Positions 15,970 through 20,994 of a stretch of DNA of 20,994 bases are shown here, piece after piece. The notes below the pieces were generated by a model. It worked only from the letters and a program-made list of their open reading frames with translations, searched no databases and had not been told where the DNA came from. This DNA is from Candidatus Thalassarchaeaceae archaeon (GTDB lineage: Archaea > Thermoplasmatota > Poseidoniia > Poseidoniales > Thalassarchaeaceae). The translations under genes were made by a program, and so were the position numbers. Numbering within the stretch: the first letter of the stretch is position 1; every line of letters begins with the position of its first letter. The stretch is from the NCBI GenBank assembly GCA_030747675.1, contig JASLKH010000019.1, positions 1-20,994 on the forward strand. Reading direction: 5' to 3'.

Positions 15970-17321
15970 ATATCACCTCCAACTTTGGTCTACAGATTGC
16001 CACTGTTGCAGCATCAGTTCTTCTTGCGGGGTGGTTAGGTTTCAGAATGGAGCGGCTCCTTGAAAAGGAACCTGGTACACGTGAAGATCTTGCGGCAAAG
16101 CGCTCATTTTGCTGGAACATGGTCGGACGTAGTCTGATGGATGCAAGTTATTTCATGCTAGGGTTTACCGTCTTCAGATTTCACGCAGAATATCTTGGAG
16201 CACCCGTATGGTTTACTCCACTGTATCTCGGAATTATTGTATTCACACAGGGAATCGGTTCATTGCTTTGGGGCGCTATTGCAGATCGATATGGAAGACG
16301 CAAACTTCTGTTGATTATTGGTTGTTCCCTGACATGTATTTTAATGGCTCCAATGCCATTTGTGGGTTTAATTCCATTCCTAATTCTCTCAATACTGCAA
16401 GTTCTATGTATTGGATCTACAAGAATACCTTTTGCTTTAGCAAGTGAGTGGATTCCAAAACATAGTGGTGAAGCGATTGGTTTGATGCATGCTACTGGTT
16501 GGATGCTTGCAGTGGGGCTGGGTGCTGTTGCAGGTGGTGTATACAGTGATCATGGTTTGATTCCAGTGGCTATTATTGCAATTTTATTCTATGCTACTGC
16601 TGTGATTTGTTTCTTGAAAATGACAGGGGATATTGTTGAACAAAAAAAGGTGTCAAGTCAATTGAAAGTCAAGAATATCTTTGCCTTCAATAGTCGCTGG
16701 CCAGTATTGATTATTGGAGTAATTCTCTTAATTTCAATACCAAGAGGCGCTATTGTACTTAACTCAATTAACTATATTGAAAAAATAGGATTTGATTTGG
16801 AATTCCTATTCATTCTGGAGGCTTGGGCACTTGCTCTAAATGTAATTTTATTCACATATGCAGGAGTTATTTGCGACAAATTCGGTTCGGAAAAAGTTCT
16901 CACTGCATCAGCTTTGATTTATTTTGTACTCTGGGCTCTTTTTGCAATTGGGATGCCCACATACATTTCTGTGGCAATATACCTGATTCCAGTAGTTGGC
17001 CTATTGTATACTTCAAGTGACACCATTTTAGCCCGACATACAACTATTGAAGAACGTAATCGAGGTATTGGGATGGCTGCAGCGGCTGTATTCATTGGAC
17101 AGAGTATTGGATCAGCAATAACATCAGGGATTATGGCTGTATTGGACAGCAGCCAGGGAGGGTTTTTTGGAATGATACCAGCAAATGCAGAAGAACAATA
17201 CTTGTGGTCATTTAGATTGTTTGTCCCAATACTAGCAATCGCTACAATTTGTGGCTGGAAGTTGACACAAATGATGGCCGCTGAAAGTGAAATCCAAGAC
17301 GCGATTATTGAAAGTGATTAG
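15966..17321 (+). CDS. Major facilitator superfamily transporter
   Basis: Motif A GAIADRYGRRK and second-half GVICDKFGSE; about 12 TM segments plus an apparent extra N-terminal hydrophobic helix; SD GAGGAGG. Confidence 0.88.
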   Translation: MNITSNFGLQIATVAASVLLAGWLGFRMERLLEKEPGTREDLAAKRSFCWNMVGRSLMDASYFMLGFTVFRFHAEYLGAPVWFTPLYLGIIVFTQGIGSLLWGAIADRYGRRKLLLIIGCSLTCILMAPMPFVGLIPFLILSILQVLCIGSTRIPFALASEWIPKHSGEAIGLMHATGWMLAVGLGAVAGGVYSDHGLIPVAIIAILFYATAVICFLKMTGDIVEQKKVSSQLKVKNIFAFNSRWPVLIIGVILLISIPRGAIVLNSINYIEKIGFDLEFLFILEAWALALNVILFTYAGVICDKFGSEKVLTASALIYFVLWALFAIGMPTYISVAIYLIPVVGLLYTSSDTILARHTTIEERNRGIGMAAAAVFIGQSIGSAITSGIMAVLDSSQGGFFGMIPANAEEQYLWSFRLFVPILAIATICGWKLTQMMAAESEIQDAIIESD

Positions 17322-18082
17322 ACTACCTCAATCACTCGAGAAAAACCAATTATGAACGAACGCCCACCAATTAATTCACTCCAATTACAAACTTCAAGCC
17401 GATATCCTCGGTTTTCATATGACAAAGTAACTTCTTCTTTATTCAATACTGAGAATGATTGGGGGGCAATATGCATCCCTAACCCACATGCTTTCTGAAC
17501 TGCTTCTTTTGCAACCCACGTTTTCGTTGTTTCTTGCATACCAATCTGCTCATCAATATCCCACAATTGGTCCAAATAATGGAATTCTTCACCACTCACC
17601 ATCATTGGAAGTAAATTTCTCGGACGAGGATAATCCAATGGCTCTGCATCAAGTCCAATCATGCACCCATCAACCGAAACTGCTGCAATTGCAACGCCAT
17701 TGGAATGACCCAGGGTAATTTCAGGTAATACAGGGCTGTGGACACCCCCGGCTCGAAGACGAGCGGTTTCATCACGCCACCCTAAAGTTGGCTTTCGATG
17801 TTGATCACGAATAATTTGTAAATCATATGGATCAAATCCGATGTCGCGTAGAAGTGTTGCTAATGCATAACGACCAGCAGCATGTTCCTCTACTCTTTTC
17901 GATACGACAAAAGTAGAGGCTTCAAAGGGATCAACTAAGGGGACTCTCGAAATATCGGATTTCGGACTATTGGGATGCACAGATCTTACCGGCATCCAAA
18001 CTGCAAATACTCGATCAGAACCACATACCTCTGGTAATGGTAAAGGGGATACGATACCTGCTGGAGACCACGGATTTGACAT
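17318..18082 (-). CDS. 4'-phosphopantetheinyl transferase (Sfp-type)
   Basis: AAGRYAL, RDQHRKP, ITLGHS, IGLDAE (metal-binding D-x-E) and WVAKEAVQKACGLG (WxxKEAxxKAxGxG). Lies 40 nt downstream of the PKS on the same strand. Confidence 0.9.
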   Translation of the reverse strand: MSNPWSPAGIVSPLPLPEVCGSDRVFAVWMPVRSVHPNSPKSDISRVPLVDPFEASTFVVSKRVEEHAAGRYALATLLRDIGFDPYDLQIIRDQHRKPTLGWRDETARLRAGGVHSPVLPEITLGHSNGVAIAAVSVDGCMIGLDAEPLDYPRPRNLLPMMVSGEEFHYLDQLWDIDEQIGMQETTKTWVAKEAVQKACGLGMHIAPQSFSVLNKEEVTLSYENRGYRLEVCNWSELIGGRSFIIGFSRVIEVV

Positions 18083-18122
18083 ATAAAAAACCAATTGGAA
18101 AAATGATTATTCAATTGAAAAA

Positions 18123-20994
18123 TTAACCCTTCCTCTGTAATTCGAATCTCAACTCTTCCGGCACTGGAGCCATTCCCTTCAATTTCAATCCTCTCAACAC
18201 CATTACTGGCTTTTGATTTCTATCGAAAATTGAGGCATCGTGAACTGTCACACCATCTTTCTCTGAACTTCTACGATAACTTCGAACGCGAAGATCATCG
18301 CGTGCCGCTGGATTTTTTAGAATCTCAACAGTTTCAATCCCCACTGGTAGACTGGAAATACCGTCGATTTCCATTGCCACTAAACCCGCATTTTGGAAAC
18401 AGGCCTCAACTAACATGGGTAAAGATTCAAGCAAAACGGTTCTTCCATCTTGGTCACTTGCAAAGAGTTTTTCATTAGGCAATTGACTTCTTAACAGCGC
18501 AATCCCATCAACACCAAAATCACCTCCATCCTTCACTCCCTTGATTAAGCCACCATGTACTTGGAATCGAGGGCCGTGGAAAAATCGATCATAAATGAAT
18601 CTTGATTGGAATGATGCCTTGCCCCTACTCGGGGGTGAATTCAGCGGTTGAACTGGGGGTCTTATTCCCCCTTCCTTCAACAATCGTACTATCCCTTGGT
18701 GATGGACTCTAGGGTTTCCAAATATCTCGCCTTTTGAATTCACTAAATCACTCTCAATGATACACTTTACCCTAATTTCTGCTTCATCTTGCTCAATGAA
18801 TTCAGCACGGATACGTAGTTTCATTTGATCTTTAATCAATTTAATCGGAAGGCCAAATTGGATTTCAGAAAAGCCCGATAGGGTACACATTGGATACAGT
18901 AAAAGAGCGTTTTCTGCAAACATTTCCATCGCCATAACGCCAGGGTGATAGGGTACCCCTTCAATTGAGTGATCAATTAAAAATGGGTAAACATCAATAT
19001 CAAGAGTACATTCTGTGACAATTTCCTCATAGGGTTCATGAGTTAATACACGATCAATGAAGGGGAAACGATCCGGATCTTCTAACATGGCTACTGTGTC
19101 TTCAGATAATTTTTGAGGCGGGTCACGTTTACTATCTTCGGAATCTAGCAATCCCAAAGCACCTGCTACTACTACTCGCCTTTTTCCACCAGAAAGAATC
19201 TCATCAACGAATATTTCTACACCTTTGTCCACTGGTATCATTTCGATTCCAGCTTGAGCGAAAATAGATTCAATTGAACCTTTAGTTGCCATTCCTACAT
19301 CCTTCCATCCAGACCATGCAATAGCTACGGCTCGCGGAGCATCTGAATGATGAGCAATCCGGCACATCTCTGCATCAAGAATATTATTTGCTGCAGCATA
19401 GTCAACTTGGCCACCATTTCCAAATCTACCTGCAACTGAAGTGAATGCGCAAAGTATGCGTAAATCATGGATACTGGAACCTAAACCATCAACCAAGGCT
19501 CGCCAACCATCGATTTTTACTGAAACCACATTAGAAAATGTCTCCCATGATTTATCTGCTACCAACTTTGAATCTTCCATGCCAGCTCCATGAATAATTC
19601 CAGTAATACCTCCATACTCATTATTCACAGCATTGAGTACTTTCTCCACTGATTTGGAATTAGTTACATCACATGCATCGTACAACGCATGATTTCCAGA
19701 AGAACGAATCGCCCGTAGTGTTTGATAAATCTCTAAACTACGCATTTGTTTATTCCATTCTGCTTCCCACTCAACCATCGTGACTTTTCCTAATTCGCTT
19801 GCAGCCATCATACTCTCGCGTAATGCTGTTTTCCTCGCCTTCAATTCATCCTCATCATCATAAATCCATTCTTCAATTGAACTATCAAGTCTTGTTCTTC
19901 CAAGGAGAATGAAAGTTGCCCCTGCATCAGGACTAGCTTGAGATACTCCGATTATACACTGCGCCGTTACACCACTACCTCCACCTGAAATAACCCATAC
20001 GTCATCATCCTTCAGAGGTTGACGAGCGTTTGCCAAGTTTTCTTCATACAATCTCATAGCCCAACGAGATCCATCGCGGGACAAACCAACTTCCAATGGA
20101 GATACGCGTCCAAATGCCTCCGCCCAAATTTGATGAGCTAATCCGGTAGGATCTGATAACATTTCAGGGTCAATGTCTACTGCTCTAAAACGCAAGTGGG
20201 GGTGTTCTTTCGCATATGACTTCACAATTCCATGGGAACCTGCCGCTAATGCATTGAACCTGTCACTAGCATTACCGTGCCGGCCATCCATTGCAGAAAC
20301 AGACATGATTGTACCATCGGAAATATTTGAGAAATGAGAATCTAGAGATTTTAGTAATCCAAATAAACCATGTGTAGATGATGCTAGGTGGGCTTCTTGA
20401 GTTTCACTTTCCCAACCCACGCCAGCAAGTCGTAAGGGGGCCAAATGTAACAATGCAGCCACTTCACCAACATTTGCAAGGTGTTGACTGACTTCAGAAA
20501 GTTGATTATGATTGTTGGGGTCAACTCGGATAATATCAACCGGACCATCTTTTTCAATTTTAATCTTAGAAACTATGCTAGGGTCGAGCATGATGCGGAC
20601 AGCGTCAATATCTGCGGCTTCTAAAATATGGCAAAGTGTGTCAGCTACTCCCCATGGGTCATCAGTAACTGCAATCACTTTGTTCTCGATATCCAAAGGT
20701 GTATGTGGTACAGCAGGGGACTCCTCAACTTCCACTTGCCATCTCCTTACACCTAAAGCAGAAGTATTGTTATGGGCTAATTTGTTATCTTCAGATACTG
20801 GCTCGAATTCACTATTTGGCTCTTTTTCTGAAACTTTAGAATCACCTTGACTGAGATAAGTAATCATGTGATTTAATGTCGGATGCTCTGACAACACAAA
20901 TGATTCATCCACAGGTAATCCGTAAAACTCTCGCAACTCAGCCATAATCTCTGCTTGCTTGACTGTGTCAATTCCCAACTCGCCCTCAAGGTCC
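18123..20994 (-). CDS. Type I iterative FAS/PKS megasynthase, PfaA/Pfa2/HglE-like; C-terminal ACP-KR-DH portion (5'-truncated at the window edge)
   Basis: The frame stays open to the edge (DLEGELGIDTVKQAEIMAELR... ACP). KR has ISGGGSGVT, HGAG, K, FTSVAGRFGNGGQVDYAAAN (Tyr 19398-19400). Double-hotdog DH has DHSIEGVPYHPG (His 18969-18971), FHGPRFQ and LVEACFQ. Confidence 0.9.
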   Translation of the reverse strand, partial: DLEGELGIDTVKQAEIMAELREFYGLPVDESFVLSEHPTLNHMITYLSQGDSKVSEKEPNSEFEPVSEDNKLAHNNTSALGVRRWQVEVEESPAVPHTPLDIENKVIAVTDDPWGVADTLCHILEAADIDAVRIMLDPSIVSKIKIEKDGPVDIIRVDPNNHNQLSEVSQHLANVGEVAALLHLAPLRLAGVGWESETQEAHLASSTHGLFGLLKSLDSHFSNISDGTIMSVSAMDGRHGNASDRFNALAAGSHGIVKSYAKEHPHLRFRAVDIDPEMLSDPTGLAHQIWAEAFGRVSPLEVGLSRDGSRWAMRLYEENLANARQPLKDDDVWVISGGGSGVTAQCIIGVSQASPDAGATFILLGRTRLDSSIEEWIYDDEDELKARKTALRESMMAASELGKVTMVEWEAEWNKQMRSLEIYQTLRAIRSSGNHALYDACDVTNSKSVEKVLNAVNNEYGGITGIIHGAGMEDSKLVADKSWETFSNVVSVKIDGWRALVDGLGSSIHDLRILCAFTSVAGRFGNGGQVDYAAANNILDAEMCRIAHHSDAPRAVAIAWSGWKDVGMATKGSIESIFAQAGIEMIPVDKGVEIFVDEILSGGKRRVVVAGALGLLDSEDSKRDPPQKLSEDTVAMLEDPDRFPFIDRVLTHEPYEEIVTECTLDIDVYPFLIDHSIEGVPYHPGVMAMEMFAENALLLYPMCTLSGFSEIQFGLPIKLIKDQMKLRIRAEFIEQDEAEIRVKCIIESDLVNSKGEIFGNPRVHHQGIVRLLKEGGIRPPVQPLNSPPSRGKASFQSRFIYDRFFHGPRFQVHGGLIKGVKDGGDFGVDGIALLRSQLPNEKLFASDQDGRTVLLESLPMLVEACFQNAGLVAMEIDGISSLPVGIETVEILKNPAARDDLRVRSYRRSSEKDGVTVHDASIFDRNQKPVMVLRGLKLKGMAPVPEELRFELQRKG

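Follow-up and report, generated by a model that had tools for sequence, protein, structure and literature searches.

Can a threonine carry the 4'-phosphopantetheine (Ppant) arm of an acyl carrier protein (ACP)? This question is raised by a large synthase gene of a Candidatus Thalassarchaeaceae archaeon (Poseidoniales; assembly GCA_030747675.1), whose 3' part lies at one end of the stretch analysed here. This stretch, referred to as the window, is the whole of contig JASLKH010000019.1 (C19; 20,994 nucleotides). An ACA codon (20964..20966, minus strand) places Thr at the position of the Ppant-accepting Ser in an ACP domain (LGID-T-VKQAEI), and a gene encoding an Sfp-type phosphopantetheinyl transferase (PPTase) follows on the same strand. 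On comparative evidence, we consider it likely that this Thr carries the Ppant arm and that the adjacent PPTase attaches it.

Threonine at the carrier attachment site

The minus-strand frame from 20993 reads DLEGELGIDTVKQAEIMAELREFYGLPVDESFVLSEHPTLNHMITYLSQ, in which the G-I-D-x residue is Thr. An earlier sequence-only reading of the window had reported this ACA codon (20966-20964) in the G-I-D-S motif, described the rest of the ACP pattern as intact and placed a PPTase directly downstream. All three statements were borne out, respectively by translation, by a PF00550 match together with alignment to solved ACPs, and by a PF01648 gene at 17318-18094 (minus strand), 28 nt past the synthase stop. 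In phmmer alignments, the Thr paired with the DS-motif serine of solved ACPs, namely PigH (LGIDSV) and the S. aureus ACP (LGADSL). Against the PF00550 cut-off of 20.8 bits, the window copy, which is truncated by the contig end, scored 20.2 bits with hmmscan and 26 bits in the genome search, and a fuller copy on another contig of the same genome (C47) scored 38 bits.

An AlphaFold2 model of the full C47 ACP, based on an alignment of 25 copies, had a mean predicted local distance difference test (pLDDT) score of 82.8 and placed the Thr (T51) as the first residue of helix II. The top Foldseek matches to this model were all ACPs (TM 0.7-0.8, root-mean-square deviation 1.4-2.1 Å). At the position where carrier domains have the conserved Ppant-accepting Ser of the D-S motif, every copy in the host and same-genus genes had Thr.

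The site lies 29 nt from the contig end and within a repeat, as might be expected if an artefact of sequencing, assembly or frame had obscured a true Ser. Against this, the same ACA codon was read independently on C47 and C19, and hundreds of independent assemblies, those of the same genus among them, also have Thr. Sequencing error, which the sequence-only reading had raised as grounds for discarding the observation, was excluded on these data, and we regard an artefact of any of these kinds as extremely improbable.

Conservation of threonine and its exchange with serine

Two sets of homologues were compared. The first comprised 120 homologues found with the ACP region by shared words, a form of selection that could favour Thr, and all of their ACP motifs carried Thr (401/401). 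As a control, 1.84 billion cluster representatives were searched with the ACP-poor ketoreductase-dehydratase (KR-DH) protein, and ACPs were located afterwards by a hidden Markov model. The 150 representatives selected by similarity to KR-DH alone contained 345 full ACP sites, corresponding to 317 Thr, 25 Ser and 3 other residues, the last sitting in low-scoring, decayed ACP copies. By these counts, Thr is the usual residue in a large synthase family that spans bacteria and archaea. Whether ACP copies upstream and in homologues carry Thr had been posed as a check by the sequence-only reading; they did so in all same-genus genes and, to the extent given above, in both sets. The GIDTVKQ motif that it mentioned for Pfa-like synthases also proved correct.

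All four Thr codons were used at the attachment site across loci, indicating that the amino acid has been held while the codon drifted. The domain offered no alternative conserved Ser; the best column had Ser in 294/398 copies and A, R or K in the remainder.

Exchange between Thr and Ser was apparent at several levels of relatedness. On a tree of the KR-DH tail, built without the ACP columns, the Ser state required at least five changes and was nested in well-supported Thr clades. The ACPs of one homologue (P0128) were almost identical to those of the window, but with Ser, and a single Heimdallarchaeaceae chain (P0253) contained three good ACPs with Ser, Thr and Ser. Within the Poseidoniales, genera g5, g8 and g11 possessed the same operon of enoyl reductase (ER), synthase and PPTase with a Ser-type ACP (GIDSIKQAEIM). 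Such exchange between near-identical orthologous domains is to be expected when Ser and Thr serve the same function. The residue after the site co-varied with it, as Val followed Thr in 94% of sites and Ile followed Ser in 70%, and the same pattern was seen within P0253. This covariation, counted across related lineages, may hint at volume compensation. The Ser-type operons at L006, L028 and L029 (genomes G009, G015 and G061), representing three Poseidoniales genera, read DADMEGELGIDSIKQAEIM.

The adjacent PPTase and its distribution

The PPTase (P0002) matched PF01648 at 3.5e-9 (37 bits) and was the sole match to this profile in the host genome. A profile of P0002 and its neighbours picked up the Sfp of B. 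subtilis (1qr0, 4mrt; 3e-15), and the catalytic motifs of the two aligned. Searching the PDB with the single P0002 sequence returned only spurious HisF matches, which were rejected. The protein combined the features of Sfp-type (group II) PPTases (PF01648, catalytic His, GxDxE and WxxKE(A/S)xxK), having the histidine of ISHS, the GxDxE motif (Mg2+) and WxxKEAxxK, and H130, D149, E151, W193, E197 and K201 were invariant in our alignments.

Of 81 Poseidoniales genomes searched, 54 yielded the PPTase and 56 the synthase, and the two matched genus by genus except in g5, a Ser-type genus whose PPTase was missed because it is too diverged for the P0002 query. The PPTase lay directly downstream of the synthase in ~50 of the 54 genomes, starting no more than ~150 nt from the stop on the same strand, with the exceptions located at contig edges. 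The co-occurrence of Thr-ACPs and this PPTase, another check proposed from the sequence alone, was thereby observed. When these 81 genomes were searched with PF00550, every over-threshold match fell within the synthase open reading frame (ORF), and so no other carrier protein is visible in these archaea. That a conserved, intact PPTase has Thr-ACPs as its sole possible substrates is difficult to account for if it does not load them. The sequence-only reading had also considered an inactive or structural ACP among tandem copies. As an odd copy among Ser-bearing ones, this was refuted, given that the same-genus copies and all 401 homologue copies carried Thr and that no free Ser-ACP was found in the 81 genomes.

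The PPTases of Ser-type operons matched P0002 at E values of 1e-8 or 4e-4, or not at all, whereas Thr-type PPTases at similar synthase identity matched at 1e-15 to 1e-28. This greater divergence is compatible with co-evolution of PPTase and acceptor, and equally with cassette replacement. In the Ser-type operon of G009, the first K of the PPTase WxxKEA motif was replaced by Ile (WMAIEAISK). Only a weak pattern was seen next to the Trp, with W-[V/T] in Thr-associated and W-[L/M] in Ser-associated enzymes; the sequences were too few and too closely related, and Sfp has W-S.

These comparisons bear on the possibility that Thr is modified otherwise, whether by another enzyme, with a chemically different arm, or by a PPTase that is promiscuous for Ser and Thr without any special co-evolution. 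Consistent with the last of these, the PPTases found with Ser- and with Thr-ACPs have all catalytic residues in common, with none that discriminates between them, and P0253 mixes both acceptors in a chain presumably served by one PPTase. Set against this, the Ser-type Poseidoniales PPTases are far more diverged from P0002 than Thr-type enzymes at equal synthase identity, and the PPTase is the sole conserved transferase of the operon. We regard modification by such other routes as quite unlikely.

The synthase-PPTase operon occurred in 39/39 sampled genomes of one Poseidoniales family. Within the window's own family, 25 genomes belonging to five genera (g4, g6, g7, g9 and g12) lacked it, and all of these genomes were small (1.2-1.6 Mb). 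Its distribution in the Poseidoniales is one of patchy loss or gain.

Threonine carriers in cex-type clostridial clusters

The published cex cluster comprises two KASIII genes, a free ACP, an AMP ligase, a hydrolase, the polyketide synthase (PKS) CexF (8,265 nt) and the PPTase CexG (PMC12144888). Deletion of cexF abolishes the yellow celluxanthene pigment in C. thermocellum, and most strains with this cluster layout make celluxanthene; the paper makes no mention of threonine (PMC12144888). Sampling 401 genomes of the phylum to which the Tepidanaerobacteraceae belong yielded three cex-like clusters and a family search yielded a fourth (L024-L027), all four with the published order KASIII-ACP-KASIII-ligase-hydrolase-PKS-PPTase. 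The PKSs of these clusters (2,694-2,736 aa) had the domain order KS-AT-KS'-ACP3-KR-DH (KS, ketosynthase; AT, acyltransferase) and nested within the same KR-DH family tree as the archaeal synthase. Their cis-ACPs carried Thr in 12/12 cases, all reading ADLGIDTVKQATIF.

Order-level searches around genomes G188 and G467 returned no further cex clusters. With regard to the published cexF screening primers, JK620 had no match and JK621 had two chance matches (in Tepidanaerobacteraceae and Sutterella genomes), with none at ≤2 mismatches in the family of G188; no published cexF primer matched locus L027 (2,754-aa ORF). By way of these cex-like orthologues, identified by synteny, the deletion result would connect an enzyme type with Thr-only cis-carriers to a polyketide product.

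In the one cex-like cluster checked for it, the free ACP (L026:4798-5082) had the canonical Ser (LTVDSIAMVEL), alongside three Thr-type cis-ACPs and one cluster PPTase. Such pairing of a Ser-type free ACP with Thr-type cis-ACPs also speaks for a PPTase that accepts either residue. The L026 cluster represents a natural test case for PPTase dual specificity.

Proposed mechanism and standing of the evidence

Judged from its domain matches, the window contains the 3' end of the gene for an iterative synthase of the fatty-acid/polyketide type, made as a single polypeptide with the layout KS-AT-KS'-ACP (probably two)-KR-DH. The catalytic residues of this synthase were intact, including the Cys/His/His of the first KS, GHSLG of the AT, the Cys of KS', the Tyr of the KR and the His of the DH. 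With all of these motifs intact, the synthase needs a carrier. We propose that the PPTase would transfer 4'-phosphopantetheine from coenzyme A (CoA) to the Thr hydroxyl, yielding O-phosphopantetheinyl-threonine. Once in the holo form, the ACPs would take malonyl and acyl thioesters through rounds of KS, KR, DH and ER reactions, as happens in any type I fatty acid synthase or PKS. The product would probably be a fatty acyl chain because a FabI-like ER gene is a neighbour. Within this scheme, we infer the Thr modification itself, the enzyme responsible and the product.

Four points weigh against Thr as the Ppant acceptor. First, the same Ser-to-Thr change in the E. coli ACP (S36T) leaves a protein that cannot be modified with 4'-phosphopantetheine and is non-functional (PMC3340395). 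The enzyme involved there, however, is AcpS and not one of the Sfp type, whereas the archaeal Thr is a conserved native state next to an Sfp-type transferase. Second, no residue in the PPTase alignments separated Thr- from Ser-associated enzymes, which keep the same catalytic residues. Third, the host genome is 78% complete and a free ACP could be missed there, although its near-complete relatives show none. Fourth, it is through syntenic cex-like orthologues, and not through the sequence of CexF itself, that Thr-ACPs are connected to a proven product. Full-text literature searches for threonine-linked phosphopantetheine found no report, and S36T, a negative result, was the sole experimental precedent found. 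The enzyme class is known, and a Thr acceptor is undescribed as far as these searches show.

The apo state of E. coli S36T (PMC3340395) would also suit Thr-ACPs that are never phosphopantetheinylated and act as structural or docking domains, the synthase using CoA thioesters or another carrier. Archaea have been reported to make fatty acids without an ACP (bioRxiv 10.1101/2024.07.05.601840), and the case for modification is a comparative one. However, never-modified domains would leave a conserved, catalytically intact PPTase without a substrate in ~50 genomes. They would also leave unexplained the tandem multiplication and within-genome homogenisation of the ACPs, the strict retention of Thr through synonymous codon turnover, and the exchange of Ser and Thr among orthologues and within one chain. 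Furthermore, the cex-like PKSs with Thr-only cis-ACPs belong to a polyene-making pathway. We consider a permanently unmodified carrier unlikely. Thr-linked phosphopantetheinylation with a co-evolved PPTase, the first of the two possibilities named from the sequence alone, is the reading that the comparative evidence supports best. For its co-evolution component, the diverged Ser-type PPTases are no more than suggestive, and no residue discriminating them from Thr-type enzymes was found.

Relation to known synthases

Compared by published description, the archaeal enzyme comes closest to the class termed 'Type R' by Shulse and Allen (2011, PMC3098273), a secondary lipid synthase cluster in which one pfaA-like gene encoding KS-MAT-CLF-ACP(3-6)-KR is followed by a PPTase gene. 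Type R organisms include Koribacter, Solibacter, Elusimicrobium and Roseiflexus, C. thermocellum is listed as 'Type T', and neither threonine nor archaea are mentioned (PMC3098273). The archaeal locus shares the domain order and the directly downstream PPTase with Type R. It differs in the number of ACPs (probably two in the host and 2-4 in Poseidoniales, versus 3-6), in having a FabI-like ER gene directly upstream, and in its second KS (KS'), which keeps its Cys and is for this reason not a classical CLF.

The cex-like clusters resemble the archaeal locus in PKS domain order, downstream PPTase and all-Thr cis-ACPs. In contrast, the two KASIII genes, free ACP, AMP ligase and alpha/beta hydrolase present in L024-L027 are not found next to the archaeal gene. 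The cex cluster also has no FabI, and its product is an arylpolyene rather than a saturated chain.

In NCBIfam, each half of the archaeal gene matched PfaA (TIGR02813) best, at 562 bits for the 5' half (P0003) and 218 bits for the 3' half (P0001), below the cut-off of 1,010. Likeness to the PfaA/PfaE system extends to tandem ACPs followed by a KR and a PKS-type DH, and, as proposed here, to activation by an Sfp-type PPTase. Unlike PfaA, the archaeal synthase has an extra KS' between the AT and the ACPs. PfaA ACPs are known to use Ser, in LGIDSIKRVEI. No pfaB/C/D-like neighbours were present in the window or at L001, the C47 locus; no whole-genome search for pfaC/D was made.

Gene organisation and assembly context

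The host genome assembly is 1.68 Mb in 100 contigs. The window contig ends inside the ACP and retains only helices II to IV of the last tandem copy, amounting to about the C-terminal two thirds of that domain (20853..20993, minus strand; PF00550 match). A 141-nt stretch at this end (20854..20994, no strand assigned) is identical to the 3' end of C47, an exact overlap that marks an assembly break within the tandem ACP repeat. The 5' part of the gene, encoding KS-AT-(ACP-like remnant)-KS'-ACP with intact catalytic motifs (P0003, 1,741 aa), is on C47 (L001:14688-19910). The 3' part in the window forms an open frame encoding the ACP, a linker, KR and DH, with Pfam matches (P0001, 956 aa; 18123..20993, minus strand).

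Simply joining C47 and C19 gave 2,651 aa, whereas intact ORFs of the same genus were 2,766 aa (G071) and 2,764 aa (G049), each with two Thr ACPs. Within G071 (L005) and within G049 (L009), ACP1 and ACP2 were DNA-identical over ~200 nt, while the copies differed between the genomes. This pattern indicates concerted evolution (gene conversion) of the repeats. Assemblies break at these repeats because the copies are DNA-identical. Given identical copies and a joined length shorter than that of the intact genes, the contig break represents a collapsed tandem repeat, and the host synthase gene very probably has two Thr-ACPs. The tandem copies that the sequence-only reading had placed upstream lie not within the window itself but on C47, or were collapsed in the assembly.

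Downstream of the ACP, the KR core (19299..19724, minus strand; PF08659, 1.4e-24) covers P0001 residues 424-565 by its Pfam KR match, with GGGSG at 337-341 (SGGGSGVTA, 336-344) and Tyr532 in VDYAAAN. The PKS-type DH (18177..19061, minus strand) is a double hotdog matching PF21089 and PF14765, with its HxxxGxxxxP motif as HSIEGVPYHP at residue 675. The Sfp-type PPTase P0002 follows (17318..18094, minus strand), and the FabI-like ER gene lies directly upstream of the synthase on C47. Neighbouring genes in the window and L001 encode the FabI-like ER, TatD, TBP, MFS and ABC proteins. Genes for TBP, PCNA, fibrillarin and Nop in the loci examined, together with the names attached to close homologues, assign the organism to the Poseidoniales (Marine Group II).

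A degenerate ACP-like half-domain, IVAAASGFPRRMVHGSVDLVSIGITQDQ, lies between the AT and the second KS (L001:17739-17830; P0003 residues ~1018-1050) and is also present in G071 (residues 1030-1079). With no D-S/T motif, it resembles either a carrier domain in decay or a docking element.

Elsewhere on the synthase contig, genes of acyl-CoA metabolism adjoin one another. An AMP-binding acyl-CoA synthetase-like gene (window:856-2646, plus strand) is followed by one for an IcmF-like fused B12-binding/MeaB GTPase/methylmalonyl-CoA-mutase protein of 1,110 aa (window:2727-6059, plus strand). A 271-aa ORF (window:12855-13670, minus strand) aligns to the FGE-sulfatase (formylglycine-generating enzyme) profile over its first 55 positions only and may be a truncated or divergent member. 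On C47, a 1,970-aa protein (L001:5652-11564) with a signal-like N-terminus, a membrane anchor at its C-terminus and a charged tail is probably a giant surface protein of a kind typical of Marine Group II archaea.

Implications

On balance, we favour the view that a very large type I synthase family, comprising thousands of clusters from bacteria, Asgard archaea and Poseidoniales and including the celluxanthene PKS type, natively holds its cofactor through O-phosphopantetheinyl-threonine. Teaching and annotation treat phosphopantetheinylation as a modification of serine, and prediction tools, active-site checks and 'inactive ACP' calls rely on this. If correct, our reading would overturn the textbook rule that carriers are loaded on a conserved serine. 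With Thr as a normal acceptor, carrier-domain annotation rules and models of PPTase specificity would need revisiting, as would decisions in engineering, for instance on the PPTase to be co-expressed when cex-type or Type R products are made in a heterologous host.

Poseidoniales (Marine Group II) are among the most abundant planktonic archaea. They carry a complete ACP-dependent set (KS, AT, ACP, KR, DH, FabI-like ER and PPTase), which bears on the archaeal 'lipid divide'. If Thr does carry the Ppant arm, abundant marine archaea would run an ACP-dependent, bacterial-style fatty acid/polyketide synthase.

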